Source: Patescibacteria group bacterium
Lineage (GTDB): Bacteria > Patescibacteriota > Minisyncoccia > Moranbacterales > UBA2206
Reading direction: 5' to 3'
DNA length: 48,598 bases
Assembly: GCA_038063775.1 (NCBI GenBank)
Contig: JBBTUK010000008.1
Coordinates: 1 to 48,598 of the forward strand
Below, piece by piece: positions 1,804 through 44,227 of this stretch. Each line of letters begins with the position of its first letter. Position 1 is the first letter of the stretch. The notes below the pieces were generated by a model that saw nothing but the letters and a program-made list of their open reading frames with translations, was not told the DNA's origin and made no database searches. Made by a program: the position numbers and the translations under genes.

Positions 1804-2553
1804 ATGAGTGATGAAAGACCGTACCTGTCCGTAATCATTCCATCTTATCGGGAAGCGGACCGAATCGGCAAAAATCTTTTGGAAATCGAAAGCTTTTTGA
1901 GCTCCAAAAAATATACCTACGAAATTTTAGTCGTGACGGACGGATCGCCGGATTCAACGCCGGAAGTGGCCAGGAGCTTCGCGGACAAAGTGAAACATTT
2001 GCGGGTGATCGAAAACAGGGAAAATCACGGAAAGGGCTATGTGGTGCGGCAGGGACTCCTGGAGGCCAAAGGAGACTACCGCGTGTTTTTGGATGCGGAC
2101 GGATCAACTTCCATTACCCATCTGGACTCTTTCCTGCCGGAATTTGAAAAAGGTTTTGAGGTGGTGATCGGATCCAGAAAAATCAAAGGTGCCTTTGTGC
2201 AGATTCATCAGCCTAAATACCGGGAAATTATGGGCGAGATGGGCAACTGGCTGATTAGAATCGTTTTGGGATTATGGAGCTATCCCGATACGCAATGCGG
2301 TTTCAAAATGATGACAGCTCGGGCGGCGGAAGCGGTGGGAACGCGCATGGTGGTTGACCGATTCGGCTTTGATTTTGAATGGATAATTTTGGCGAAAAAG
2401 ATGGGCTTCAAGGTAGAACAGATGCCGGTCAGGTGGCTCAATGAAGAAGGTTCGTCAGTGAGCCTCACCGGACCAAACGGATTCATCCAAGTTTTGATTG
2501 ACTTGTTCAAGACTCGGTGGAGGCTTTGGACCGGAAAATACAATATAAAATAA
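1804..2553 (+). CDS. Family 2 glycosyltransferase (dolichyl/polyprenyl-phosphate hexosyltransferase-like)
   Basis: LSVIIPSYREADRI, VVTDGSPDST and FLDADGS motifs are typical of GT2. ATG 1804 is preferred over the TTG 1792 in the ORF track. Confidence 0.8.
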   Translation: MSDERPYLSVIIPSYREADRIGKNLLEIESFLSSKKYTYEILVVTDGSPDSTPEVARSFADKVKHLRVIENRENHGKGYVVRQGLLEAKGDYRVFLDADGSTSITHLDSFLPEFEKGFEVVIGSRKIKGAFVQIHQPKYREIMGEMGNWLIRIVLGLWSYPDTQCGFKMMTARAAEAVGTRMVVDRFGFDFEWIILAKKMGFKVEQMPVRWLNEEGSSVSLTGPNGFIQVLIDLFKTRWRLWTGKYNIK

Positions 2554-6098: not shown

Positions 6099-7138
6099 AA
6101 AATATCCAGGAACTGATAGAAAAAATTAACTCTGTTGCCGCCGGAATTAAAAATAATATAAATATAATGGAGGTCTGCGGTACCCATACGCAGGCAATTA
6201 GCCGCTACGGAATTCGCGAACTTTTGCCTAAAAATATCCGTTTGATAAGCGGTCCGGGATGTCCGATTTGTGTAACCGCGCAAGCTGACATTGATGCTAT
6301 TGTCAACTTGGCGCTCGCGGGAATTCCCGTAGCTACCTATGGCGATGCGATAAGGGTTCCTGGGTATTTCGGCAGTCTGGAAAAAGCGCGGAGCTTGGGA
6401 GCAAAAGTTTTTCCGGTGTATTCGGTGGAAGAAGCGCTGGAACTGAAAGTAAAATATCCGGATATGGTCTTTTTTGGGATTGGTTTTGACACGACGGCGC
6501 CCATGACGGCGATGGCATTGAAAAAAGGATTGACCGTCTATTCCACGCACAAGCTTTTTCTGCCGGCGATGGACGCGCTTTTGGCGATGGGAGAACTAAA
6601 AATAGACGGCTTCCTAAGCCCCGGGCATGTTTCAACGATTGTTGGCCTGAAGCCTTACGAGCATATGAAAGTCGCGCAAGTGATAACCGGCTTTGAAGCG
6701 GAAGACGTCCTGGTTGGCTTGCTAATGCTTCTTCATCAGATCAAAAAAGGCAAGAGTATAGTGGAAAATGAATATGCCAGGTCAGTGCGGAAACTTGGAA
6801 ATCCGAAAGCGCGCAAGATCATTTTTGAGGAATTCAAAATCTCGGACGGCAACTGGCGGGGATTTGGAATAATACCCAGTTCGGGCTTGGAGGTAAAAAA
6901 CCCAAAACTTAACGCTAAAATTAAATACAAAGATATTTTATCCAAAATTGATTTTTCGCTCTCCAGAAAGCCGACTGGTTGCCTGTGCGGAGAAGTCATC
7001 CGGGGACTCATTACTCCAGTAGAGTGTCCTATGTTCGGGCGTGCCTGCACGCCGGAAAATCCCTATGGCCCTTGCATGGTTCCCGCGGAGGGGAGCTGCA
7101 ACGTTAAATATCGATATAACAAAACTAAGAGGAAATAA
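6095..7138 (+). CDS. hypD: [NiFe]-hydrogenase maturation protein HypD
   Basis: CGTHT, GPGCPICV, GFDTTAP and PGHVS motifs, with C-terminal Cys clusters. Confidence 0.92.
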   Translation: MKNIQELIEKINSVAAGIKNNINIMEVCGTHTQAISRYGIRELLPKNIRLISGPGCPICVTAQADIDAIVNLALAGIPVATYGDAIRVPGYFGSLEKARSLGAKVFPVYSVEEALELKVKYPDMVFFGIGFDTTAPMTAMALKKGLTVYSTHKLFLPAMDALLAMGELKIDGFLSPGHVSTIVGLKPYEHMKVAQVITGFEAEDVLVGLLMLLHQIKKGKSIVENEYARSVRKLGNPKARKIIFEEFKISDGNWRGFGIIPSSGLEVKNPKLNAKIKYKDILSKIDFSLSRKPTGCLCGEVIRGLITPVECPMFGRACTPENPYGPCMVPAEGSCNVKYRYNKTKRK

Positions 7139-7185: not shown

Positions 7186-8202
7186 ATGGCAAAAGAAACG
7201 GAAACAATTGAACTAGAAGCCGGAGCGGGTGGTGAAAAATCAAGCGAGCTGATTGAAAAAATCAGAAACAATTTTTCTTTACGCGGCAAATGGAAAAATA
7301 CCGGCGACGACGGAGCAGTTTTGGATTTGGGTCTCTCGACTTCGCTCGGGACAAATTTTTTAGGAAAAAATTTGGTTTTTACAACCGATGCTTTCATAGT
7401 GGATCCCATATTTTTTCCGGGAGGGAATATCGGAAAGATTTCCATGTGCGGGACGATCAATGATCTGGCTGTTATGGGCGCGCGGCCCATGGGCATCGCG
7501 CTGAGCCTGGTCATTGAAGAAGGCTTTCCACTAAGCGATCTTATGAAAATCACGAAGTCTATCGAAATCGTGTCGCGGCAGGCGGGCGTGCCTGTCGTAA
7601 CTGGCGATACGAAAGTCATGGAAAGAGGCAAGCTTGATAAAATAGAAATTACCACTTCCGGCGTGGGATTGGCGGATAAAGTAATTGAAAATAACGGTGC
7701 CGATCCGGGCGATCGGATAATCTCATCTGGTGATTTGGGAGAGCACACTGTCGCGCTTCTGGGCGTCCGGTTCAACTACAAAACTAAAATAAAAAGCGAT
7801 TCCCAAACGCTTCATAGAGAAATAGAAGCAGCCGGAAAATATCTGAAAGCGGCCAAAGATCCGACCCGGGGCGGACTGGCGGCCAATATCATTGAAATAG
7901 CCGAAAAATCAAGAGTAAAAATTATACTGGAAGATAATCTACTTCCCTTTAAGAAAGAAACTCGCGCTATCGCGGAGCTTTTAGGAATTGATGTTCTTTC
8001 TTTTGCTTCGGAAGGAAGGTTTATTGCCGCGGTTTCTTTTAAAAACACTCAAAAAGTTTTAAATATCCTAAAAAAATTCAATAAAGAAGCCAAAATAATC
8101 GGCCGGGTGAAAAAGGGCAAGGGGGTTTATTTGAAAACTAAAATCGGTACCGAAAGACCGATTGAATCGCCGCGGGGAAAGCTAGTCCCCAGAATCTGCT
8201 AG
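7186..8202 (+). CDS. hypE: [NiFe]-hydrogenase maturation protein HypE (carbamoyl dehydratase)
   Basis: PurM-like fold motifs and the invariant C-terminal PRIC. Confidence 0.92.
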   Translation: MAKETETIELEAGAGGEKSSELIEKIRNNFSLRGKWKNTGDDGAVLDLGLSTSLGTNFLGKNLVFTTDAFIVDPIFFPGGNIGKISMCGTINDLAVMGARPMGIALSLVIEEGFPLSDLMKITKSIEIVSRQAGVPVVTGDTKVMERGKLDKIEITTSGVGLADKVIENNGADPGDRIISSGDLGEHTVALLGVRFNYKTKIKSDSQTLHREIEAAGKYLKAAKDPTRGGLAANIIEIAEKSRVKIILEDNLLPFKKETRAIAELLGIDVLSFASEGRFIAAVSFKNTQKVLNILKKFNKEAKIIGRVKKGKGVYLKTKIGTERPIESPRGKLVPRIC

Positions 8203-9333
8203 GAGATAATAAACTATCTGCCCGAAAGAAACTCCGGCGTCCCCACGCGATATTTTTTTACTCGAGTAAACTCCTTTGCGTTCGAGATAGGAAGCAATTA
8301 TTTTATTATTGGCGATTCCGCCGGCAAAGAAACCAGCTTTTAGCTTAGAGCTTTTGGCTTCCAGCTTTAAAACTTTATATAAACCTTGGGCGATATAAAG
8401 CTGAGCGGTGGCGGCGAGGCGACGCTTGTCCCTGTTGATATTTTTAACTAGATATTCAAAAAGAGGAGTGGTCATTATCCCGTAACCCGTAACCCATAAC
8501 CCGTAACCCGTAATTCTTTTGATCTCTGGTTCTAGATCTTTGTAAGGTCTAGTGGAGTTTTTTTCGAGCAAGATCGCGGGGCTATGCTTATATTTCCTAA
8601 CATTACCTGAAAAGCCAAGCAGGACGGAAACCGCGTCCAAAATTCTTCCGGTGCTGGAAGTTTCCTGGCAGTTGAAATTTTGTTGAAGCTGATTATATAA
8701 TAGCTCGAATTGATTACGAGAGTAATATTTTTTAACAAGTCGATACAATTTATCTTTGGACATAAATTTGTCGAGGATGCTGATTAGCATGCGAGCCGGC
8801 TCGTTTACGGCCAAATCACCACCTATCAAAATTTGATTTTCCAAATGTCCGATTCTTTCAATACTTTTTACTTTTTCCTTCTTACTTTTTATTTTGAATA
8901 ATTCTCCACCCCAGATTTTTCTATCCAATCCGTAGCCGGTGCCGTCGCAGGCGATCCCGTAACCCGTAACCTGTAACCCGTAACCCGGTTCTTGGACAAT
9001 CTTATCTCCGATGGCAGAAAATACATGCGCTATATGATGTTGCACCTTTATATGGTTGGCTTTGTATTTTTTGCTCAAACTCTCTCCCAAAATAGTCGTC
9101 CTATAAAGAGGATGAAGATCGGTTAAAATTATGTTCGGCTTGGCTCGATTATTTTTCAAAAATTTTGCCACTGTCTGAATGAGTTTTTGAAAATTTTCTT
9201 CGCTTAATAAATCACCGAAAGATTCCGACCTATAAATCACTCCTTTGTAAAAAACTGAAAAATTACCGTCGGATTCCGGTCCCAAAGCCAGCAGGCAGTT
9301 ATGGGTATTTGCGGAGAAATTTATTGATTCCAT
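8182..9333 (-). CDS. hypF: HypF-like protein consisting only of the C-terminal Kae1-like domain
   Basis: Aligns by eye to E. coli HypF residues ~380-750: LALGPESDGNF, TDLHPLY, VQHHIAHV, ACDGTGYG...IWGGE, GGDLA, SSTGRILDAV, FAGGIANN, RGDAGVSFGQ. No acylphosphatase, Zn-finger or YrdC-like part. The 3' end overlaps hypE by 21 bp. Confidence 0.8.
   Translation of the reverse strand: MESINFSANTHNCLLALGPESDGNFSVFYKGVIYRSESFGDLLSEENFQKLIQTVAKFLKNNRAKPNIILTDLHPLYRTTILGESLSKKYKANHIKVQHHIAHVFSAIGDKIVQEPGYGLQVTGYGIACDGTGYGLDRKIWGGELFKIKSKKEKVKSIERIGHLENQILIGGDLAVNEPARMLISILDKFMSKDKLYRLVKKYYSRNQFELLYNQLQQNFNCQETSSTGRILDAVSVLLGFSGNVRKYKHSPAILLEKNSTRPYKDLEPEIKRITGYGLWVTGYGIMTTPLFEYLVKNINRDKRRLAATAQLYIAQGLYKVLKLEAKSSKLKAGFFAGGIANNKIIASYLERKGVYSSKKISRGDAGVSFGQIVYYLLADSGD
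8479..8513 (-). repeat. Heptanucleotide tandem array (GGGTTAC)n, five units, in frame inside the hypF-like gene
   Basis: Plus strand reads cccgtaa cccgtaa cccataa cccgtaa cccgtaa. It encodes ITGYGLWVTGYGI. Confidence 0.95.
8956..8986 (-). repeat. Second heptanucleotide array (GGGTTAC)n, about 4.5 units, in frame inside the hypF-like gene
   Basis: Plus strand reads cccgtaa cccgtaa cctgtaa cccgtaa cccg. It encodes PGYGLQVTGYGI. The 34-nt block matches 8477-8510 at 32/34 positions. Confidence 0.95.
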
Positions 9334-19124: not shown

Positions 19125-19201
19125 TGGTGGGCATATCTGGATTCGAACCAGAGACCTCGTCATTATCAGTGACGCGCTCTAACCAACTGAGCTATATGCC
19201 C
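19125..19201 (-). tRNA. tRNA-Ile (anticodon GAT), CCA encoded
   Basis: The reverse complement, GGGCATATAGCTCAGTTGGTTAGAGCGCGTCACTGATAATGACGAGGTCTCTGGTTCGAATCCAGATATGCCCACCA, folds into a perfect cloverleaf. Confidence 0.95.
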
Positions 19202-19212
19202 GTATGGACTTG

Positions 19213-19285
19213 TGGACCCTAGGGGATTCGAACTCCTGACCTCCTCGGTGCAAACGAGGCGCTCTACCAACTAAGCTAAGGGCCC
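19213..19285 (-). tRNA. tRNA-Ala (anticodon TGC), CCA not encoded
   Basis: The reverse complement, GGGCCCTTAGCTTAGTTGGTAGAGCGCCTCGTTTGCACCGAGGAGGTCAGGAGTTCGAATCCCCTAGGGTCCA, has the G3:U70 identity pair and one A-C mismatch in the T stem. Confidence 0.88.
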
Positions 19286-19587: not shown

Positions 19588-20133
19588 ATGGCAAAGCAAA
19601 CACAACATCACGGACGCGCTTGGTATGTGATTCACACCTATTCAGGCTATGAAGACAATGTTGCTCGGAATTTGAAACAAAGGATTGAATCGATGGATAT
19701 GCAAAATGCGATTTTTGACGTGATGGTTCCGGTAGAAAAAAAAATAAAAATCAAAGCCGGCAAAAGAAATGTCGTTGAAGAAAAAATATATCCCGGATAC
19801 GTCTTGGTGGAGATGATAGTGACGGACGCTTCCTGGTACGTAGTCCGAAACACGCCCAATGTCACGGGATTTATCGGACTCGGAACTACCCCGACCCCGG
19901 TTGATCCAGCGGAAATCGAAGCGCTCAAAAAAAGAATGGGCATGGCAGAACCCAAATACAAGATTGACGTAAGGCCAGGCGATTCGGTCAAGATAATCGA
20001 CGGACCGTTTAAGGATTTTGACGGGAAGGTGGATGATGTTGATGAAGAAAAGGGCAAGATAAAAGTGCTGGTTTCCATATTCGGGCGGGAAACTCCCGTA
20101 GAATTAGACTTTTTGCAGATTAACAAGATATAA
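19588..20133 (+). CDS. nusG: Transcription termination/antitermination factor NusG
   Basis: WYVIHTYSGYE start, an NGN domain and a C-terminal KOW (GDSVKIIDGPFKDFDGKV). Confidence 0.95.
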   Translation: MAKQTQHHGRAWYVIHTYSGYEDNVARNLKQRIESMDMQNAIFDVMVPVEKKIKIKAGKRNVVEEKIYPGYVLVEMIVTDASWYVVRNTPNVTGFIGLGTTPTPVDPAEIEALKKRMGMAEPKYKIDVRPGDSVKIIDGPFKDFDGKVDDVDEEKGKIKVLVSIFGRETPVELDFLQINKI

Positions 20134-37727: not shown

Positions 37728-37808
37728 ATGTCTAAATATATTCCAGTTATCGGAATGGAGATTCACCCCGTAAAATCCCGAGGCGGGATCACGGGGCAAG
37801 CGTCTTAA
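37728..37808 (+). pseudogene. Ghost gatB 5' fragment: 13 GatB-like codons (MSKYIPVIGMEIH) running into a hairpin. 26-codon upstream ORF.
   Basis: 10 of 13 residues match the real GatB N-terminus (MSKYKPTIGLEIH). The stop TAA (37806-37808) lies 3 nt before the real ATG. Confidence 0.7.
37766..37796 (+). repeat. 31-nt palindromic element CCCCGTAAAATCCCG-AGG-CGGGATCACGGGG
   Basis: CCCCGT/ACGGGG and ATCCCG/CGGGAT stems. Followed by CAAG + 11 nt + ATG, the same layout as at miaB. Confidence 0.85.
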
Positions 37809-37811
37809 ATT

Positions 37812-39281
37812 ATGAGTAAATATAAACCAACAATTGGCTTAGAGATTCATGTTGAGCTGAAGACCGAATCTAAGATGTTTTGTGACAGCAAAAACGGTTT
37901 AGGGCTGGAAAAGGAACCCAATGTGAACATTTGTCCGGTTTGCACGGGACAACCCGGAACTCTGCCGGTGCCGAATCAAAAAGCGATTGAATTCGTGCAA
38001 AAAGCCGGCTTGGCTTTAAATTGCCAATTGCGGGAAGTTTCCAAATTCGACCGAAAAAACTATTTTTACCCCGATCTCCCGAAAGGTTATCAGATTTCCC
38101 AATATGACCAGCCGCTCTGCGAAAAAGGAAAAATAGAAATTGGTGGAAAAGAAATCGGTATAACCCGGATTCATTTGGAAGAAGATACTGGAAAACTTAT
38201 TCACCCCAAAGGTGGAAAGTATTCACTTTTTGATTATAACCGAGCTGGTGTGCCGCTTATGGAACTTGTGACCGAGCCGGAGATTGAAAGCGGGAAAGAG
38301 GCTCGGATTTTTTGCCAGAAACTTCAGCAAATTTTCCGGTATCTCGAAATTTCCGAAGCGGATATGGAAAAAGGCCACATGCGCTGCGAAGTGAACATTT
38401 CGCTTTACAAAAATAGTGAAGATAAATTGAGCGGAACGAAAGTGGAAATTAAAAACCTAAATTCTTTCCGGGTGGTTGAAAAATCAATCGATTTCGAGAT
38501 TGAGCGCCAAAAAGCGGCCCTAGAGAGCGGAGAAAAAATTATTCAGGAAACGAGGGGCTGGGGTGAAAATAAGGGAGAAACCGTAACTCAGCGAGAAAAA
38601 GAATCAGCTCATGAATATCGATACTTTCCTGAACCGGATATTCCCACTTTGCGATTTACTCAAGAATACATAGAAAATTTAAGAAAAAAATTGCCGGAAC
38701 TTCCTGATGCCAAAGAAAAAAGATTCATCGAAGAATACAATTTATCCCCGGAAAATGTGGGTGTTATAGTAGGCGACAAAAATTTGGCTGATTATTTCGA
38801 GCATGTCGTCTCAGAAATAAGGGAAAAGATGGACTGTGGAGAACTTGATGTGGAAGAAAAAAAGTGCGTAAAATTAGCTGCCAATTATATGGTGAGCGAA
38901 TTACAGAAGCACTTGATCGAGAATAAAGAAACTATAGAGAACGTTAAGATAACACCGGAAAATTATGCAGAGCTGGTCGGATTTGTGGCGAACGGAAAAA
39001 TTAGCTCCAGCGGAGTTCAGGTTGTCTTGGAAGAAATGTATAAGAAAGGCGGAGATCCCTCCCAGATTATTGAAGAAAAAAATTTGCTTCAATTAAACGA
39101 TGAAAAGCATTTGGAAGAGATTGTTGATAAAGTTTTGAAAGAACACCAGCAATCTGCAGCGGATTATAAAAGTGGAAAAGAAAATGCTCTGCAATTTTTA
39201 GTGGGTCAAGTTATGAAAGAATCAAAAGGGAAGGCTAACCCGCAAATCGTGCAAGAATTACTAGGAAAGAAGCTGAAATAG
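37812..39281 (+). CDS. gatB: Aspartyl/glutamyl-tRNA amidotransferase subunit B
   Basis: IGLEIHVELKT and CPVCTGQPGTLP motifs, with a YqeY-like C-terminal tail. Confidence 0.95.
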   Translation: MSKYKPTIGLEIHVELKTESKMFCDSKNGLGLEKEPNVNICPVCTGQPGTLPVPNQKAIEFVQKAGLALNCQLREVSKFDRKNYFYPDLPKGYQISQYDQPLCEKGKIEIGGKEIGITRIHLEEDTGKLIHPKGGKYSLFDYNRAGVPLMELVTEPEIESGKEARIFCQKLQQIFRYLEISEADMEKGHMRCEVNISLYKNSEDKLSGTKVEIKNLNSFRVVEKSIDFEIERQKAALESGEKIIQETRGWGENKGETVTQREKESAHEYRYFPEPDIPTLRFTQEYIENLRKKLPELPDAKEKRFIEEYNLSPENVGVIVGDKNLADYFEHVVSEIREKMDCGELDVEEKKCVKLAANYMVSELQKHLIENKETIENVKITPENYAELVGFVANGKISSSGVQVVLEEMYKKGGDPSQIIEEKNLLQLNDEKHLEEIVDKVLKEHQQSAADYKSGKENALQFLVGQVMKESKGKANPQIVQELLGKKLK

Positions 39282-39352
39282 TAATAATATCGGGTGTGCA
39301 TAAGTCGTATTGCTTGAAATATCACAAGATGTTAGAATGGACAAAACATGAA

Positions 39353-39450
39353 TCCCGTTACAAAATTCACTTAAGACTTGAAATAACGGGATTTTCGCAA
39401 CAGTTTTTGTTTTTAATGCCATTAAATCGTATATCAAATTCGTAACGGGA
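39353..39450. mobile_element. MITE-like element (TCCCGTTAC... terminal inverted repeats) with TGAA duplication and an extra internal arm
   Basis: TCCCGTTACAAAATTC (39353-39368) against the reverse complement of 39435-39450, TCCCGTTACGAATTTG: 13/16. TGAA at 39349-39352 and 39451-39454. An internal TAACGGGATT (39384-39393) pairs with 39351-39360. Confidence 0.6.
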
Positions 39451-39572
39451 TGAAAAAGCTGAAATGGCCGAGCGCAATTAAATGGTTCTGCAAAGTGACA
39501 GGAAGGTCGCCCATAAAGGCGATTTTTTTTATGATATTTTTGGTTTTCAATAGTAATAAAAAACATTCGTGA
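39450..39572 (+). CDS. Candidate 40-aa hydrophobic peptide (MKKLKWPSAIKWFCKVTGRSPIKAIFFMIFLVFNSNKKHS)
   Basis: Open frame whose ATG is rebuilt by the MITE end, as at two verified genes. No SD and no homology recognised. Confidence 0.3.
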   Translation: MKKLKWPSAIKWFCKVTGRSPIKAIFFMIFLVFNSNKKHS

Positions 39573-39590
39573 TCCGAAAGGAGGGGCCAT

Positions 39591-39815
39591 ATGATAGGTG
39601 ACGGAATTCCGAAAAGGAGAAAAGGAGGATTGACAGAGACTAAGGTTGAGCAGGTGCCGTGTCCGATGCTGAAAGGAGCAACATGCAGTGCACCCAAAAC
39701 GAGGGCGAAACTTTCAGATCCATCAGCGTGTTTCGTCGACAATTCATGCGTTCCTGGGCAACGATTTCCCAAGGAATTCACCGAAGAAGCTCAGAAAGTA
39801 GTATGTCATAGGTAA
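39591..39815 (+). CDS. Candidate 74-aa basic, Cys-containing small protein
   Basis: Very strong SD (AAGGAGG, 39578-39584) 6 nt before the ATG, followed by a strong hairpin. The region looks GC-richer than its flanks by eye. No homology recognised, and it could instead be a structured RNA. Confidence 0.4.
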   Translation: MIGDGIPKRRKGGLTETKVEQVPCPMLKGATCSAPKTRAKLSDPSACFVDNSCVPGQRFPKEFTEEAQKVVCHR

Positions 39816-39837
39816 GACATGACTACGCGAAACAAAA

Positions 39838-39868
39838 GTCCCGGCGAGAGGAGCACCTCCGCCGGGAC
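39838..39868. terminator. Strong hairpin between the convergent small ORF and miaA. Terminator for miaA (T-rich on the minus side).
   Basis: GTCCCGGCG-A-GAGG-AGCA-CCTC-CGCCGGGAC. On the minus strand it is followed by TTTTGTTT. Confidence 0.7.
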
Positions 39869-39883
39869 GATATTATTTATGGG

Positions 39884-40783
39884 TTAATTTAGGAATTTTT
39901 TCACCTCCCTTTCAATTTCTTTATACCTTTTCAACCATACAATGCGTTTGTCTTTTCTGAACCAAGTCATTTGGCGCTTGGCATAATCCTTTTCGGCTAA
40001 ATAAACCCGTTTTTCCAGTTCGTACATAGATATTTTCCCTTCAAGATATAAAGGTACCCAGAAATAGCACAAGCCGAAACTCTGGATTTTTTTCCAGCTT
40101 AGCCCGTTTTTTCTTAAAGTTTTTACTTCTTCTATCAAGCCGGCCTGGAATCTTTTTTTCAGGCGTTTTTTTATTTTATCGTGGAGGAGCTCTCGGGGAA
40201 CATCCATTCCAATTTGCAGGAATCTATAATCAGTAGCCCGAAATCCGAAGATTATGCCTTGAGGAACTTTCCCGAGTTTTTGGCATATTTCGATGGCTCT
40301 TATAATCCGCACCTTGTTCTTTGAGTCAATATTTTTGGCTCGTTCCGGATCTACTTCTTTTAACATTGAGAATAATTTCCTCGCGTTTAACTTTCCTAAT
40401 GTTTCTCGGAGTTTCCAATCAGGCTTGACTTCGGGAAAATTTACGTCATCAACGACAGACTTTATCCAAAAGCCCGTTCCGCCACAGATGATAGGGACTT
40501 TTTTTCTTCCAAAAATATCCGAGATTATTTTTTCCGCCTCCCTCTTGAAAAGAGCGACGCTATAATTTTCCTTGGGGCTAACGATGTCCAACATCCAATG
40601 GCGGGCCATTTTCTGCTCCGATTTTGTAACTTTTCCGGTCCCCAGATCCATCTTGCGATATATCTGCCGGCTGTCAGCGGAGATTATTTCACCATTAAAT
40701 TTTTTAGCCAACTTAATCGCCACAGACGACTTCCCGGAAGAAGTCGGGCCGAGAATAACAATAATTTTTTTAGAAGTATTCAT
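39884..40783 (-). CDS. miaA: tRNA dimethylallyltransferase
   Basis: ILGPTSSGKS P-loop, ISADSRQIY and GGTGFW motifs. Confidence 0.93.
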   Translation of the reverse strand: MNTSKKIIVILGPTSSGKSSVAIKLAKKFNGEIISADSRQIYRKMDLGTGKVTKSEQKMARHWMLDIVSPKENYSVALFKREAEKIISDIFGRKKVPIICGGTGFWIKSVVDDVNFPEVKPDWKLRETLGKLNARKLFSMLKEVDPERAKNIDSKNKVRIIRAIEICQKLGKVPQGIIFGFRATDYRFLQIGMDVPRELLHDKIKKRLKKRFQAGLIEEVKTLRKNGLSWKKIQSFGLCYFWVPLYLEGKISMYELEKRVYLAEKDYAKRQMTWFRKDKRIVWLKRYKEIEREVKKFLN

Positions 40784-40823
40784 TTCTTTTGTTATCCCAA
40801 ACTCAATTCAGGCTATAAGTTAG

Positions 40824-40921
40824 TTGTCATTCCCGCCCCCGCTTTCGCGAGGATAAACTCCGGCGGGAATCCAGTATCAAAGCTTTTATGACTAGATTCC
40901 GGATCAAGTCCGGAATGACAA
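40824..40921. repeat. 98-bp compound palindromic element between miaB and miaA
   Basis: Outer TTGTCATT/AATGACAA. Inner ATTCCCGCC(N24)GGCGGGAAT and ATTCCGGA-TCAAG-TCCGGAAT hairpins. Confidence 0.8.
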
Positions 40922-40922
40922 T

Positions 40923-42317
40923 TTAAGTATTGCCTAATTTACCTTCGAGATTCCATATATTGGCTTTGGTTATTTTAACTTTCACAAATTGTCCCACCAA
41001 ACCTTTTTTATTTGAAATAATCTTAACATTTTTCATTGTGCGTGTTTTTCCGAAGTAGAAATCGCCCTTTTTGCTATCAATTAGCACTTCCAGTGTTTTT
41101 CCAATATATTTTTTGTTGTTGGTAAAAACGGTTTTCTTCAGAATTTCGTTAAGATATTTTTCTCGCCTGGCTTTTTCCTTTTTGGATACGTTATCCTTCA
41201 TCTTCCAAGCAACCGTGCCCGGGCGGGGAGAGTATTGTCCGAAATATACCATATCATACATTGCTCTTTTCATCATTTCGGCCGAGGCAAGAAAATTCCT
41301 TTTTGTTTCACCAGGAAAGCCGACAATTATATCCGAAGTTATGGAAAATAATTTTTGTGGCTTATATCTTTTGAAAGCTACTTTTATTTTTTTGATCAAA
41401 GTCAGATATTGATGGCTGGTATATCGGCGGTTCATTTTCCGTATAATTGCATCATTGCCTGACTGAATTGGTAAATGAAAACACTCGCAAATCTTGGGAA
41501 GCTTGGCAACTGTTTCAATCATTTCATCCGTGACGTCTTTGGGGTGGTTGCTGATAAAACTGATCCAAAAATGCCCGGGGATGGCATTGATCGTCCTAAG
41601 TAGTTTTGAAAAAGTAATGACTTTATCCTCCTTCGCTGATGCTTCGGCGGATGAATTCTTATCGATAAATCGATAAGAATTCACATTCTGTCCCAGCAAA
41701 ACAATTTCTTTGTACCTATTTTTAACTAAATTTTTAACTTCTTTTATTATTTCCTCCGCTGGCCGTGAAACTTCGCGTCCTCTGGCATACGGCACTACAC
41801 AATAAGAGCAAAAATTATTACAGCCGGTCATGATCGGAATGTAGGCCTGGAATTTATTGGCATGCTTAGGTTTAATGGATAGATAGGCAATGCTTTCTTT
41901 GTTTGGAGTATTATTACTTTGTGTAATTTTCAATTTTAAATTTTCAATTTTCAATGAATTTTTAATGATAAAATTTTCAAATGTTTTAAAATCGTTTATG
42001 GTAAAAAACAAATTCACCTTATTTTTCAAACGCCTTTGCACATCTTTCCTGTTTGCCAAGCATCCTGTGAGAACAATTTTCACTTTTTTGCTGCTTTTTC
42101 TCAAATTATGGATTTGTCCATAAGCCCGGTCTTCAGCCATCTGCCGCACGCCGCAAGTGTTGAAAACAACCAAATCCGCCTTCGCTAAAGCTTCGGCGGA
42201 CAAGTCCGCTCCTGGTAAAGGCGAAAAACCACAACTTTCTAGACAAGCGGCAATTCGCTCCGAGTCCGAATGGTTCATCTGACAACCAAGAGTCTTGATA
42301 TAATATTTTTTAGTCAT
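40923..42317 (-). CDS. miaB: tRNA-2-methylthio-N6-dimethylallyladenosine synthase (radical SAM methylthiotransferase)
   Basis: IKTLGCQMNHSDSE UPF0004 N-domain, the CNNFCSYCVVP radical-SAM cluster and a C-terminal TRAM domain. Confidence 0.93.
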   Translation of the reverse strand: MTKKYYIKTLGCQMNHSDSERIAACLESCGFSPLPGADLSAEALAKADLVVFNTCGVRQMAEDRAYGQIHNLRKSSKKVKIVLTGCLANRKDVQRRLKNKVNLFFTINDFKTFENFIIKNSLKIENLKLKITQSNNTPNKESIAYLSIKPKHANKFQAYIPIMTGCNNFCSYCVVPYARGREVSRPAEEIIKEVKNLVKNRYKEIVLLGQNVNSYRFIDKNSSAEASAKEDKVITFSKLLRTINAIPGHFWISFISNHPKDVTDEMIETVAKLPKICECFHLPIQSGNDAIIRKMNRRYTSHQYLTLIKKIKVAFKRYKPQKLFSITSDIIVGFPGETKRNFLASAEMMKRAMYDMVYFGQYSPRPGTVAWKMKDNVSKKEKARREKYLNEILKKTVFTNNKKYIGKTLEVLIDSKKGDFYFGKTRTMKNVKIISNKKGLVGQFVKVKITKANIWNLEGKLGNT

Positions 42318-42323
42318 AGTGAT

Positions 42324-42398
42324 TCATTCTTGCCCCGTACCAAGCCCTGCTTTGGTACTGGGGTGACAACCGAAAGTTTTAATAAGATATTTTTTCAT
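42324..42398 (-). pseudogene. Ghost miaB 5' fragment: MKKYLIKTFGC then hairpin-encoded residues. 24-codon upstream ORF.
   Basis: Compare the real MiaB MTKKYYIKTLGCQMN. The frame leaves MiaB homology exactly at TGT CA|C CCC. The stop TGA lies 6 nt before the real ATG. Confidence 0.7.
42333..42363 (-). repeat. 31-nt palindromic element (minus strand CCCCAGTACCAAAGC-AGG-GCTTGGTACGGGG)
   Basis: Same length, same central AGG, same CCCC/GGGG ends and the same 3' ACGGGGCAAG as the gatB element. Confidence 0.85.
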
Positions 42399-42445
42399 AA
42401 CAAAAGTATTTATCAGGATAACTTAAAATAGGAAAATTATCAAGT

Positions 42446-42467
42446 AAAAAACCCTGCTTGCGCAGGG
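42446..42467 (-). terminator. Rho-independent terminator of thrS
   Basis: On the minus strand: CCCTGC-GCAA-GCAGGG followed by TTTTTT. Confidence 0.85.
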
Positions 42468-42490
42468 GGTTTCAAAAGTCATATTCAAGG

Positions 42491-44227
42491 CTATTTTTTA
42501 CCCCCGATTTCTTTTTTCAGCTTTTCAATAAAATCTTCTAATTTTATCATTCCTTCATCACCCTTATCGCGATGTCGGACTGCCACCGATTCGGCCTGCA
42601 TTTCCTTTTCTCCGACTATGAGCATATAAGGAATTTTTTGCTTTTCCCCATTGTGGATTCTTTTACCTAGAGATTCATTGGTAGCGTCTATTTCGGCACG
42701 AATTCCAGCAATATTTAATTTTTCCAAAACCTTTTTCGCGTATTTTCCAAATTTTTCTTCTGAAACCGGAATGACAAGTGCTTGAACAGGGGAAAGCCAT
42801 ATCGGGAAAGCTCCGGCGTAATGTTCAATGATAATGCCGATGAATCTTTCAAAGGCGCCGAAGATCGCGGCGTGGATCATAACGGGCGTCTTCTTTTTTC
42901 CGTCTGAATCAATATATTCCAATTCAAATCTTTGAGGCAATTGGAAATCCAGCTGAATCGTCGCCAGTTGCCAGGGTCGTCCCAAAGCGTCCTTTATATC
43001 AATGTCAATTTTTGGTCCGTAAAACGCGCCGTCTTTTTCTTTAATTTCGTATTTCACTTTTTCTTTTTTGAGCGCGCCCTCTAAATCTTTTTCCGCTTCG
43101 TTCCAATCTTTTATTTCTCCCATAAAATTTTCCGGCCGGGTAGAAAGATAGAATTCCGGTTCAAGTTCAAAGGCCTGATAGTATTCCTTAGCCATCTTAA
43201 CTAGGGCCGCGATTTCCTCCTTAACCTGCTCCTTTGTCAAGAAAATATGCGAATCGTCCTGGGTAATGTGCCGGACGCGGAGAAGGCCATTGAGTTCGCC
43301 GGACTTCTCGTTGCGCAAAACCCGGCCGATTTCCGTGTAACGAATCGGTAAGTCCTTATAGGACCTTTGTTTGGTTTGGTAAATTTTGATGTTGAAGGGG
43401 CAATCCATCGGCTTGATGCAGTATGTTTCACCGTTGACATCAAAATAAAACATATCCTTTTTGTAATGGTCCCAGTGTCCGGAAGTTTGCCAAAGAGAAT
43501 TTTTGGCTAAAATCGGAGTTTGAATTTCAAGATAGCCAAACTTTTTGCGGATACTTTTTCCGAATTTTTCTAGCTCATTCCAAATAATCATTCCTTTTGG
43601 ATGCCAAAAAGCTGAGCCTGGCGCTTCGGGATGAAAGGAAAATAAATCCAATTCGCGTCCCAGCTTTTTATGATCCCTCTTCTCCGCTTCTTCCAACATA
43701 CTCAAGTATTGTTCTAATTCTTTTTTTGATTCAAACACCACGCCGTAGATCCGCTGCATCTGCTTCTTATTCTCATCACCTTTCCAATAAGCGCCGGAAA
43801 TTTTGGTTAATTTGAAGGCCTCCGGATTAATATCTTTTGTGGAGGCGACATGAGGACCGGCGCAAAGATCGACAAACGGACCGGCTTTATAAATGCAGAT
43901 CTGTTCATTTTCTTTTTCCAAATCTTCAATAAGTTCCAGCTTGTAAGTCTGGCCTAATTTTTTAAAATCAGTTTTAGCGGTCGAAGCGGAAATTTTTGCT
44001 TCTTCAAATTTATGGCCGGCTTTAATAATGGCGCGCATCTTTTCTTCCAAAAGCGGCAGGTCTTCCGGAATGAGCGTCCGCGGCAGGTCAAAATCATAAT
44101 AAAAGCCGTTTTCAATGGCCGGTCCGGTTCCGAATTTGGCTTCCGGGAACATTTCCAAAACGGCAGCCGCCAGAACATGGGCCGTGGAATGTCTCAAAGT
44201 TTCCTCAACATTCTTCTTTTTTGTCAT
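42491..44227 (-). CDS. thrS: Threonyl-tRNA synthetase lacking the N-terminal TGS domain
   Basis: Starts at the editing/second-additional domain (HSTAHVLA). Class II motifs and an anticodon-binding domain are present. 578 aa. Confidence 0.93.
   Translation of the reverse strand: MTKKKNVEETLRHSTAHVLAAAVLEMFPEAKFGTGPAIENGFYYDFDLPRTLIPEDLPLLEEKMRAIIKAGHKFEEAKISASTAKTDFKKLGQTYKLELIEDLEKENEQICIYKAGPFVDLCAGPHVASTKDINPEAFKLTKISGAYWKGDENKKQMQRIYGVVFESKKELEQYLSMLEEAEKRDHKKLGRELDLFSFHPEAPGSAFWHPKGMIIWNELEKFGKSIRKKFGYLEIQTPILAKNSLWQTSGHWDHYKKDMFYFDVNGETYCIKPMDCPFNIKIYQTKQRSYKDLPIRYTEIGRVLRNEKSGELNGLLRVRHITQDDSHIFLTKEQVKEEIAALVKMAKEYYQAFELEPEFYLSTRPENFMGEIKDWNEAEKDLEGALKKEKVKYEIKEKDGAFYGPKIDIDIKDALGRPWQLATIQLDFQLPQRFELEYIDSDGKKKTPVMIHAAIFGAFERFIGIIIEHYAGAFPIWLSPVQALVIPVSEEKFGKYAKKVLEKLNIAGIRAEIDATNESLGKRIHNGEKQKIPYMLIVGEKEMQAESVAVRHRDKGDEGMIKLEDFIEKLKKEIGGKK

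Follow-up and report, generated by a model that had tools for sequence, protein, structure and literature searches.

Islands that integrate at the 3′ end of tRNA or tmRNA genes, or at the 5′ end of dusA, supply a new gene end to their target, and the old end stays behind as a diverged direct repeat. Integron attC sites and the attP site of the CTX phage act as folded single strands, in which the structure is kept while the stem sequence varies, one strand is active and unpaired bases occur at conserved places. Homology-facilitated illegitimate recombination combines one homologous crossover with one non-homologous joint and leaves short resident duplications, and Rickettsia palindromic elements and mycobacterial MIRUs are small inserts tolerated in or between genes, the MIRUs keeping reading frames coupled. 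The insertion sequence IS91 has an essential CTTG beside a subterminal palindrome, makes no target duplication, uses a bottom-strand single-stranded circle as its substrate and drags neighboring DNA along in one-ended transposition (PMC13181058), and Helitrons capture gene fragments when their 3′ hairpin is bypassed (PMC4778049). Here, a small module is described that occupies the start of both miaB and gatB in a 48,598-nucleotide contig (GenBank JBBTUK010000008.1; the whole stretch is called the window) of a Patescibacteria/Moranbacteria-like bacterium from Hainich groundwater. At each gene, a relic of the original start, termed the ghost, is followed by a hairpin, a short leader and a second, functional start. 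It is a real, recurrent and selected DNA module, and no described family accounts for it.

The window is one contig (48.6 kb) of its genome, in which TGA is a stop codon, and was compared with related metagenome and genome loci labelled L001 to L029, of which L022 is the sister genome. Further cassettes were sought by a strict motif scan of metagenomes, after which homologous loci were fetched and read. At miaB, the cassette and its surroundings consist of the following parts:

42452–42467, minus strand: intrinsic terminator of thrS, which marks the native intergenic context of the ghost
42415–42443, minus strand: promoter-like site TTGATA-17-TATCCT upstream of the ghost, kept in L022
42364–42398, minus strand: miaB ghost, the resident first 11–12 codons (MKKYLIKTFGC plus CA), 89% identical to the native start of L022
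42324–42398, minus strand: open reading frame (ORF) of the ghost, MKKYLIKTFGCHPSTKAGLGTGQE followed by a stop, 24 codons plus TGA, which crosses the hairpin
42333–42363, minus strand: imperfect hairpin CCCCAGTACCAAAGCAGGGCTTGGTACGGGG, 31 nucleotides, of the form CCCC...AGG...GGGG with an AGG loop
42329–42338, minus strand: decamer ACGGGGCAAG, composed of the 3′ stem arm and a CAAG tag, and reading CTTGCCCCGT on the other strand
42318–42328, minus strand: A/T-rich leader AATGAATCACT, 11 nucleotides, which arrived with the insert
40923–42317, minus strand: functional miaB, 464 amino acids, with the protein start MTKKYYIKTLGCQMN and its ATG at 42317–42315

From its ATG at 42398 the ghost reads ATG AAA AAA TAT CTT ATT AAA ACT TTC GGT TGT CA, ending at 42364, and the real gene opens with ATG ACT AAA AAA TAT TAT ATC AAG ACT CTT GGT TGT CAG ATG AAC. 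A protein identical to the window MiaB is present in the protein collection, though an exact look-up gave no match. The hairpin has a fold energy of -16.8 kcal/mol (z = -3.3) and on the complementary strand reads 5′-CTTG-CCCCGTACCAAGC-CCT-GCTTTGGTACTGGGG-TGA. An earlier sequence-only reading of the locus had described this layout of ghost, 31-nucleotide hairpin, decamer, spacing and real ATG, and re-reading confirmed it; the two spacings that it gave are both right, 11 nucleotides being counted after CAAG and 15 after the last G of the stem. CAAG followed by AATGAATCACT is similar to leaders native to miaB in relatives, for example CAAGAACTTTA-ATG in L019. Comparison of the miaB leader with L019 and L004 had suggested that the insert comprised the ghost and the hairpin, placed ahead of a native CAAG; this arrangement was rejected, as L021 has a full native leader before its ghost and L022 shows that the ghost side is resident.

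The twin cassette at gatB lies on the opposite strand:

37728–37765, plus strand: gatB ghost, which encodes MSKYIPVIGMEIH and is 84% identical to the native gatB start of L022
37766–37796, plus strand: gatB hairpin, 31 nucleotides, followed by CAAG at 37797–37800
37801–39281, plus strand: 11-nucleotide leader and functional gatB, with the real ATG at 37812 and the first ~60–120 nucleotides foreign

The insert is 46 nucleotides long in both window cassettes, and exact matches to the decamer occur in the window only in these two. The pattern CCCC-N15-35-GGGGCAAG occurs twice against 0.05 occurrences expected, and none of 100 shuffles reached two; among the 31-nucleotide hairpins of the window, these two rank second and third in stability (z of -3.3 and -3.8). 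When every gene end in the window was scanned for nearby peptide duplicates, ghost copies were found at miaB and gatB only, so that every ghost in the window has a hairpin. Chance does not account for the cassette pattern. A different hairpin, at 39838–39868 (GTCCCGGCG...CGCCGGGAC; -26 kcal/mol on either strand), is the strongest of the window; it separates the stretch downstream of gatB from the end of miaA and is probably a bidirectional terminator for convergent genes.

Beyond the window, reading of the homologous loci brought the module to at least nine lineage/locus combinations, five at gatB, two at miaB, one at uvrA and one at the 3′ end of rnj, the gene for RNase J; the strict scan motif misses known variants (L021, L025, L027 and L028), which makes this census partial. 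The copies are distributed as follows:

gatB: window, L019/L024, L025/L026, L027 and L028
miaB: window and L021
uvrA: L014, with the ghost MQNIIRIRGARQH and the real start MTNKIVIRGARQHNLKN
rnj: L013, mirrored, at the 3′ end, with the gene on the other strand

A ghost is present in every copy retrieved. The CAAG/CTTG side always faces the functional gene and the CCCC side the ghost, the junction always consists of ...CA joined to CCC, and the insert stands directly after codon 11–13 of the resident gene. The duplicated stretch always measures 41–61 nucleotides and the non-coding part 46–54. At rnj the order is ...ILPVVIEV-stop, 8 nucleotides, CTTG, hairpin, TGA and a second ILPVVIEV-stop; because this module sits mirrored after the stop codon, the rule is geometric and not about gene starts. 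Presence is patchy, since L019 has the gatB cassette without the miaB one, L021 has the reverse and L022 has neither. The gatB twin and the further copies thus bear out two statements of the sequence-only reading, that the cassette recurs and that ghost and gene N-terminus are truly homologous. Its tie to tRNA and translation genes did not hold, as uvrA and the 3′ end of rnj carry the module too, and the decamer, identical in the two window cassettes, is conserved in other copies without being the same in all of them, L025 having CAGG and L021 and L028 having CCCT...AGGG stems.

The cassette sequence of the window is identical in the independent Hainich groundwater contigs L011, L012, L016 and L020, and homologous cassettes are present in JGI, Logan and NCBI assemblies; with at least six independent assemblies from different projects, an assembly artefact is excluded. 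Several apparent leads were discarded. The two window cassettes, which are inverted and 4.6 kb apart, are not the ends of one gatB-miaA-miaB element, as L019 has only the gatB cassette, L021 only the miaB cassette, and no composition break was seen. The 8-bp identical core GAGATTCA / GGTTGTCA was rejected as a crossover or target site, the other copies sharing only CA. About one third of MiaB homologues start with "MN.SDSER", which resembled a widespread interruption between GC and QMN; L002 and L004 have an intact MKYYIKTFGCQMN upstream, and these starts are gene-caller errors. Six relaxed-motif matches in viral contigs were chance matches or ordinary terminators, and L001 (Blastocatellia, the single match in the genome collection) and L017 were matches by chance.

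Which of the two starts is resident was determined from the sister genome. L022 is the closest relative of the window, sharing 90% identity over nucleotides 420–1400 of gatB against ~78% for L019, L025 and L027, and both its gatB and its miaB are uninterrupted and represent empty sites. In L022, the native starts align with the window ghosts, and the short leader, miaB promoter and thrS terminator with the sequence upstream of those ghosts, with identities of 84% for the gatB ghost, 89% for the miaB ghost and 78–88% for the intergenic region that holds the promoter and leader. Relative to the sister genome, the alignments show the cassette as an insertion and the ghost as the resident copy. 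The homology of ghost and real start, as first read, therefore stands, but with the roles changed: the ghost is the original start, and the "real" start is the incoming foreign copy.

The foreign character of the functional 5′ ends was seen in identity profiles along the two genes, whose tract boundaries rest on short comparison windows. The first 60 nucleotides of gatB are 93% identical to L025 vs 75% to L022, whereas nucleotides 420–1400 are 78% identical to L025 vs 90% to L022. The first 60 nucleotides of miaB are 83% identical to L021, the other cassette-bearing miaB, vs 72% to L022; nucleotides 60–480 are 57% identical to L022 vs 69–72% to the others, and nucleotides 480 to the end 76% vs 67–70%, a comparison weakened by the divergence of the 5′ third of L022 miaB from every genome (59–66%). 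The first ~450 nucleotides of miaB are not orthologous to the sister genome, and the first ~60 share the L021 haplotype. By these profiles, the functional 5′ ends of miaB and gatB are foreign (xenologous). Between ghost and real codons, the differences at four independent loci are 19 synonymous and 9 non-synonymous, against a random expectation of 4.6 synonymous (P < 5e-5), and include a switch between the TCT and AGT codons for serine; the rnj pair differs at seven codons, the stop included, with the peptide unchanged. Mostly synonymous divergence together with foreign ends rules out duplication in place followed by decay, and indicates that one gene end came from another lineage.

The hairpin moved with the new start. 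The gatB hairpin is identical in L025 at 31 of 31 positions and in L019 at 30 of 31, against a background of ~78%, and the gatB ghost is only 74% identical to that of L025, while the first 60 nucleotides of the gene reach 93%. Because hairpin and first 60 nucleotides match L025 and the ghost does not, the hairpin and the new start travel together and moved after the lineages split; on this comparison, the module was exchanged between lineages with ~60 nucleotides of the adjoining gene. Among 120 GatB homologues, most have an N-terminus of the ghost type (KY[IT]PVIGME) and a minority one of the real type (KYK.TIG). Of the real-type loci read as DNA, the cassette is present in those of L019/L024, L025, L027, L028 and the window; in L029 the real-type N-terminus is native and no cassette is found, and this locus is plausibly of the donor type.

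Conservation of the hairpin was examined in an alignment of eight distinct copies, made by hand on the strand that reads 5′-CTTG-hairpin and leaving out the L025/L026 gatB copy. Pairing is kept in 97% of cells, and 7 of the 14 pairs (21 cells) are changed on both sides, figures that are inflated by the fitting of the alignment to the structure by hand; none of 500 shuffles reached the observed pairing, and slid controls were 35–57% paired. That stems vary in sequence and keep their shape, as proposed from the two window copies, was thereby upheld. Hairpin length across copies is 29–33 nucleotides, and CTTGCCC(C/T)GT is invariant in all eight aligned copies, the L025/L026 gatB copy having CAGG on the mRNA strand (CCTG on the CTTG strand). 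All eight G·U cells belong to the CTTG strand, and of the three mismatches not one would become G·U on the other strand (two-sided sign test, ~0.008); in 8/8 copies the CTTG strand equals or exceeds the other in stability. For miaB, gatB and uvrA this is the antisense strand, and for rnj the sense strand. As judged from these substitutions, selection maintains the hairpin and acts on the CTTG strand. The structural conservation first proposed is thus present, on the strand antisense to miaB and gatB, and the occurrence of G·U pairs there and not on the mRNA strand argues against a simple mRNA hairpin.

No promoter was detected inside the cassette; the real genes would be read from the promoter of the ghost, and the site at 42415–42443 is the sole candidate promoter for the real miaB. 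The working protein would accordingly start at the second ATG, on a transcript from the native promoter upstream of the ghost. The miaB leader has no Shine-Dalgarno sequence, as is the case for all window genes: none was seen at 40/40 listed gene starts (e.g., 8182–9333, 19588–20133 and 42491–44227). Window leaders are short and A/T-rich, with TATAAT-like boxes often 9–15 nucleotides from the ATG, which suggests leaderless or very short-leader mRNAs in this genome. Both window ghost ORFs share the frame of the real ATG and terminate 3–6 nucleotides ahead of it (6 at miaB), and those of uvrA and L028 end inside the hairpin, the uvrA ghost being out of frame with an offset of 92 nucleotides. The sequence-only reading had held that an interrupted ghost frame would speak against it, and such frames were found in part: the ghost ATG has become AGG in L025 and ATA in L028, and cassette and gene persist in both. 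Because the ATG is lost in these two lineages and the uvrA ghost is out of frame, the miaB ghost ORF is probably incidental; because cassette and gene persist despite this loss, translation of the ghost is dispensable, and the ghost is a relic and not a required leader peptide.

Among described families, IS91, ISCR and Helitrons come close to the module in that CTTG directly abuts an imperfect palindrome in 8/8 aligned copies, with L025/L026 (CCTG) as the exception, and in the lack of a true target duplication, the preference for the bottom strand and the co-mobilized gene fragments. The comparison with IS91 was one of features. The module differs from IS91 in consisting of 46–54 nucleotides of non-coding DNA plus a gene fragment, and in landing in the homologous gene and not at any CTTG. 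With the REP/REPIN sequences of the RAYT system it shares an imperfect palindrome of ~30 nucleotides, a 4-nucleotide end tag, one-strand G·T pairs, a position near or overlapping gene ends and non-autonomy (PMC3733652). Its tag is CTTG, whereas that of REPs is GTAG or CGTC; it has two unpaired copies with different stems in 48.6 kb, whereas REPs are near-identical units, often in inverted pairs, and typically number hundreds per genome; and a duplicated xenologous gene end adjoins each copy, "duplication" being a word absent from the text of the REP survey (PMC3733652). No RAYT was seen in the window, which is one contig.

The gene-end islands share with the module the principle of restoration, by which the target gene stays functional, but are kilobases long, encode an integrase and have their two ends separated by the whole island, whereas the module has ~46 nucleotides and no coding capacity. 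Like attC sites, the module keeps its structure while its stem varies, has one favored strand and has unpaired stem bases; unlike them, it lacks the RYYYAAC/GTTRRRY cores, measures 31 nucleotides rather than ~57–141, is found without an array or integrase and is accompanied by duplicated gene ends. The joints of the module always lie at the foot of one conserved, selected hairpin, which separates it from scars of illegitimate recombination, and Rickettsia palindromic elements and MIRUs are translated in frame or intergenic, neither bringing a second copy of a gene end. With Rfam 15, at gathering and permissive thresholds, only two tRNAs in the window reached threshold and the cassette regions gave nothing with E < 1; the decamer was found in the searchable literature only in unrelated primers. 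A TIGR-Tas unit, defined by a stem enclosing box C, spacer A, loop, spacer B and box D and by arrays near a tas gene, was rejected, since the module has a continuous stem and a 3-nucleotide loop, is solitary and has no Nop-domain gene in the window. A diversity-generating retroelement was rejected as well, the repeat differences not being adenine-specific and the window having no reverse transcriptase, and CRISPR-like off-target spacer integration, a group II intron domain V and a protelomerase site each lacked a defining feature.

The explanation favored here, in which we place about even confidence, is that this is a non-autonomous, horizontally spreading "gene-end replacement" module whose hairpin serves as the site of a trans-acting enzyme. 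Its pieces are the 31-nucleotide hairpin with its conserved foot (on the antisense strand 5′-CTTGCCCCGT...GGGG-TG), the short A/T-rich leader and the first 12–13 codons of the same gene from another lineage. The hairpin would be the recognition or cleavage site of a putative single-strand-specific enzyme, most likely of the HUH/rolling-circle type as in IS91, which would create the non-homologous joint at the foot of the hairpin; homologous recombination inside the gene would resolve the opposite side of the incoming DNA. The allele so formed would then spread among related genomes by recombination and would be hard to lose, as only a precise deletion would leave the housekeeping gene intact. 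In the copies, one side has a single non-homologous joint exactly at the hairpin foot, and the other a homologous tract whose length varies. No transposase or recombinase was found in the window or in the loci read, where Pfam scans of ~45 window ORFs and of the small ORFs beside the L019 and L021 cassettes gave housekeeping families or no match, and this absence from the window fits a non-autonomous element. A broader proposal, more tentative and rather doubtful at present, is that the module represents an undescribed class of non-autonomous micro-element in the Candidate Phyla Radiation that homes into the extreme 5′ or 3′ ends of housekeeping genes. Such an element would be tolerated since a recoded copy of the displaced codons sits next to a ~31-nucleotide CTTG-tagged hairpin, and would spread between species by a putative single-strand, hairpin-specific enzyme and homologous recombination.

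Several points weigh against gene-end replacement by a dedicated enzyme. The analogy with HUH enzymes and IS91 rests on three points, namely the CTTG tag, the adjacent palindrome and the strand asymmetry, with the enzyme itself putative, and the asymmetry is compatible with single-stranded DNA and antisense RNA alike. DNA mobilized by IS91 lies away from the CTTG, whereas the foreign tract of the module is on the CTTG side; IS91 has two distinct ends (ori and ter), whereas the module has a single hairpin; and no Y2/HUH transposase was found in the 48.6-kb window or the loci read. Two copies in 48.6 kb are few, unlike typical REP or MITE families, and neither a circular or free form nor a "donor" copy lacking a ghost was seen among the loci retrieved, the collection scans for which used the strict motif. 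The gatB leader is mosaic: the window equals L019 at 15/15 positions and L025 at only 73%, though the hairpin and the first 60 nucleotides fit L025 best, a pattern that requires either a series of small exchanges or a hot spot of mutation at this place. The hand-fitted alignment, the partial census and the divergent miaB of L022, noted above with the figures that they affect, belong on the same side.

The main rival, which we consider fairly unlikely, is a passive scar of homology-facilitated illegitimate recombination, in which homeologous DNA taken up by transformation would be joined through one homologous crossover and one illegitimate joint, and the hairpin of the donor leader would only shield the strand end from exonuclease or flap removal, with no dedicated enzyme. 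A topology of exactly one illegitimate joint and a homologous tract agrees with such an event, the neighborhood is strongly mosaic between close relatives, and a hairpin-less rnj ghost in L013 shows that ghost-forming insertions occur without a hairpin. Yet four genes share hairpins of the same conserved foot and length, unlike random donor hairpins, no ghost-less copy is present among the retrieved matches, and the duplicated stretch always spans 41–61 nucleotides; decay would be expected of a scar, whereas the hairpin is more conserved than the coding sequence and has compensatory changes.

A cis-regulatory RNA is improbable. Under this explanation, translation of the ghost as a leader ORF would unwind the hairpin and couple or gate the translation of miaB and gatB without a Shine-Dalgarno sequence, which suits a genome that lacks such sequences and has short A/T-rich leaders, the in-frame position of both window ghost ORFs with stops 3–6 nucleotides before the real ATG, the presumed reading of the real genes from the ghost's promoter in place of their own, and the conserved hairpin. 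Set against these are the loss of the ghost ATG in L025 and L028 and the stops within the hairpin at uvrA and in L028, the presence of the module in the opposite orientation behind the rnj stop codon, the G·U pairs on the antisense strand, by which the mRNA version has A·C mismatches, and the sister L022, which lacks the device at both genes; the origin of the two gene ends from different lineages would also be left unexplained.

Very little credence is given to target-site duplication in situ, by which a small palindromic transposable element would have made a duplication of ~40–60 bp whose copies diverged in place. The repeat-insert-repeat geometry and the constant 46-nucleotide insert of the two window copies are as expected from this process, but the differences between copies are mainly synonymous (P < 5e-5, including the TCT/AGT switch and the rnj pair), ghost and native sister start group together, as do the real copy and other lineages, and the leaders before the two copies are unrelated. 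Recoding, with the ghost as the true start and the interval removed by ribosome bypass of the T4 gene 60 type or by RNA splicing, is barely credible, as is, under the same heading, an assembly artefact: there are possible take-off and landing codon matches (CAC/CAT for histidine at gatB and uvrA, TGT/TGT at miaB) and a hairpin after the putative take-off site, but bypass was rejected because the gap holds a complete second start with its own ATG, which makes it unnecessary, and the ghost start codon is lost in two lineages (L025 and L028), the uvrA offset is 92 nucleotides, no ribozyme or intron family matched, and the cassettes recur in at least six independent assemblies.

Further observations concern the surroundings of the cassettes. 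Over window positions 39884–44227, ThrS, MiaB and MiaA are 61–67% identical in protein sequence to those of L019, and the flanking GatB, MazG and MsrB 86–91%; thrS is only 62–83% identical in nucleotide sequence to that of the sister L022. This mosaicism implies frequent homeologous replacement within a conserved gene order. The interval between gatB and miaA, 39282–39883, does not align with L022 7492–7928 (0–50% identity, with long gaps) and holds only short ORFs without a family match; it is another replaced or rapidly evolving segment. The hairpin-less rnj ghost of L013 (7547–7610, minus strand) is a second, longer copy of the C-terminus, FYLHQKTQRRLLILLVVIEV followed by a stop, ~1 kb from the cassette; a LytR_C-domain gene (7684–8496) lies between the two rnj ghosts, and the arrangement looks like serial insertions at one gene end. 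In L014, a perfect palindrome with a 12-bp stem, CCCCTCTCTTTCCGAAAGAAAGGGAGGGG, lies inside uvrA (2229–2257, minus strand) and encodes RPSLSERKGGV; it may be an in-frame insertion of the Rickettsia palindromic element type. Between thrS and miaB, an insertion of ~1.1 kb with two or three small ORFs without a Pfam match is present at L019 5900–7050, L024 10560–10960 and L021 5950–6900. In L019 the exact 25-nucleotide direct repeat CCTCCCTTGATTTCCGCCGAATTTT occurs at 6731 and 7023; its other strand holds a GGGAGG Shine-Dalgarno-like site, and because such a site is lacking in the host genes, the repeat region is probably foreign. Elsewhere in the window, adjacent genes for tRNA-Ile(GAT) and tRNA-Ala(TGC) lie at 19125–19285 on the minus strand, a pair usual in the spacer of rRNA operons; no rRNA was detected in the window.

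The module also bears on annotation, where ghosts could pass for leader peptides. Gene callers mis-start GatB, at codon 10 (P0127) or at codon 14, the first after the junction (P0129–P0132); P0129 (L024) carries the cassette, and the loci behind P0127 and P0130–P0132 are outside those read. MiaB is often called from an internal MN even without a cassette (~35/120 homologues).

If the micro-element proposal is true, the module would be a counterpart, without splicing or an integrase, of introns, inteins and the islands that target gene ends. Splicing removes introns and inteins, and integrative islands encode an integrase and restore the gene end; such a module would instead sit inside an essential gene without destroying it by bringing ~40 nucleotides of replacement coding sequence behind a hairpin, with the old start left as a fossil, and would point to a putative hairpin-specific DNA enzyme. 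For the Patescibacteria, it provides a visible marker of interspecies exchange in core genes, where gene flow is hard to trace.

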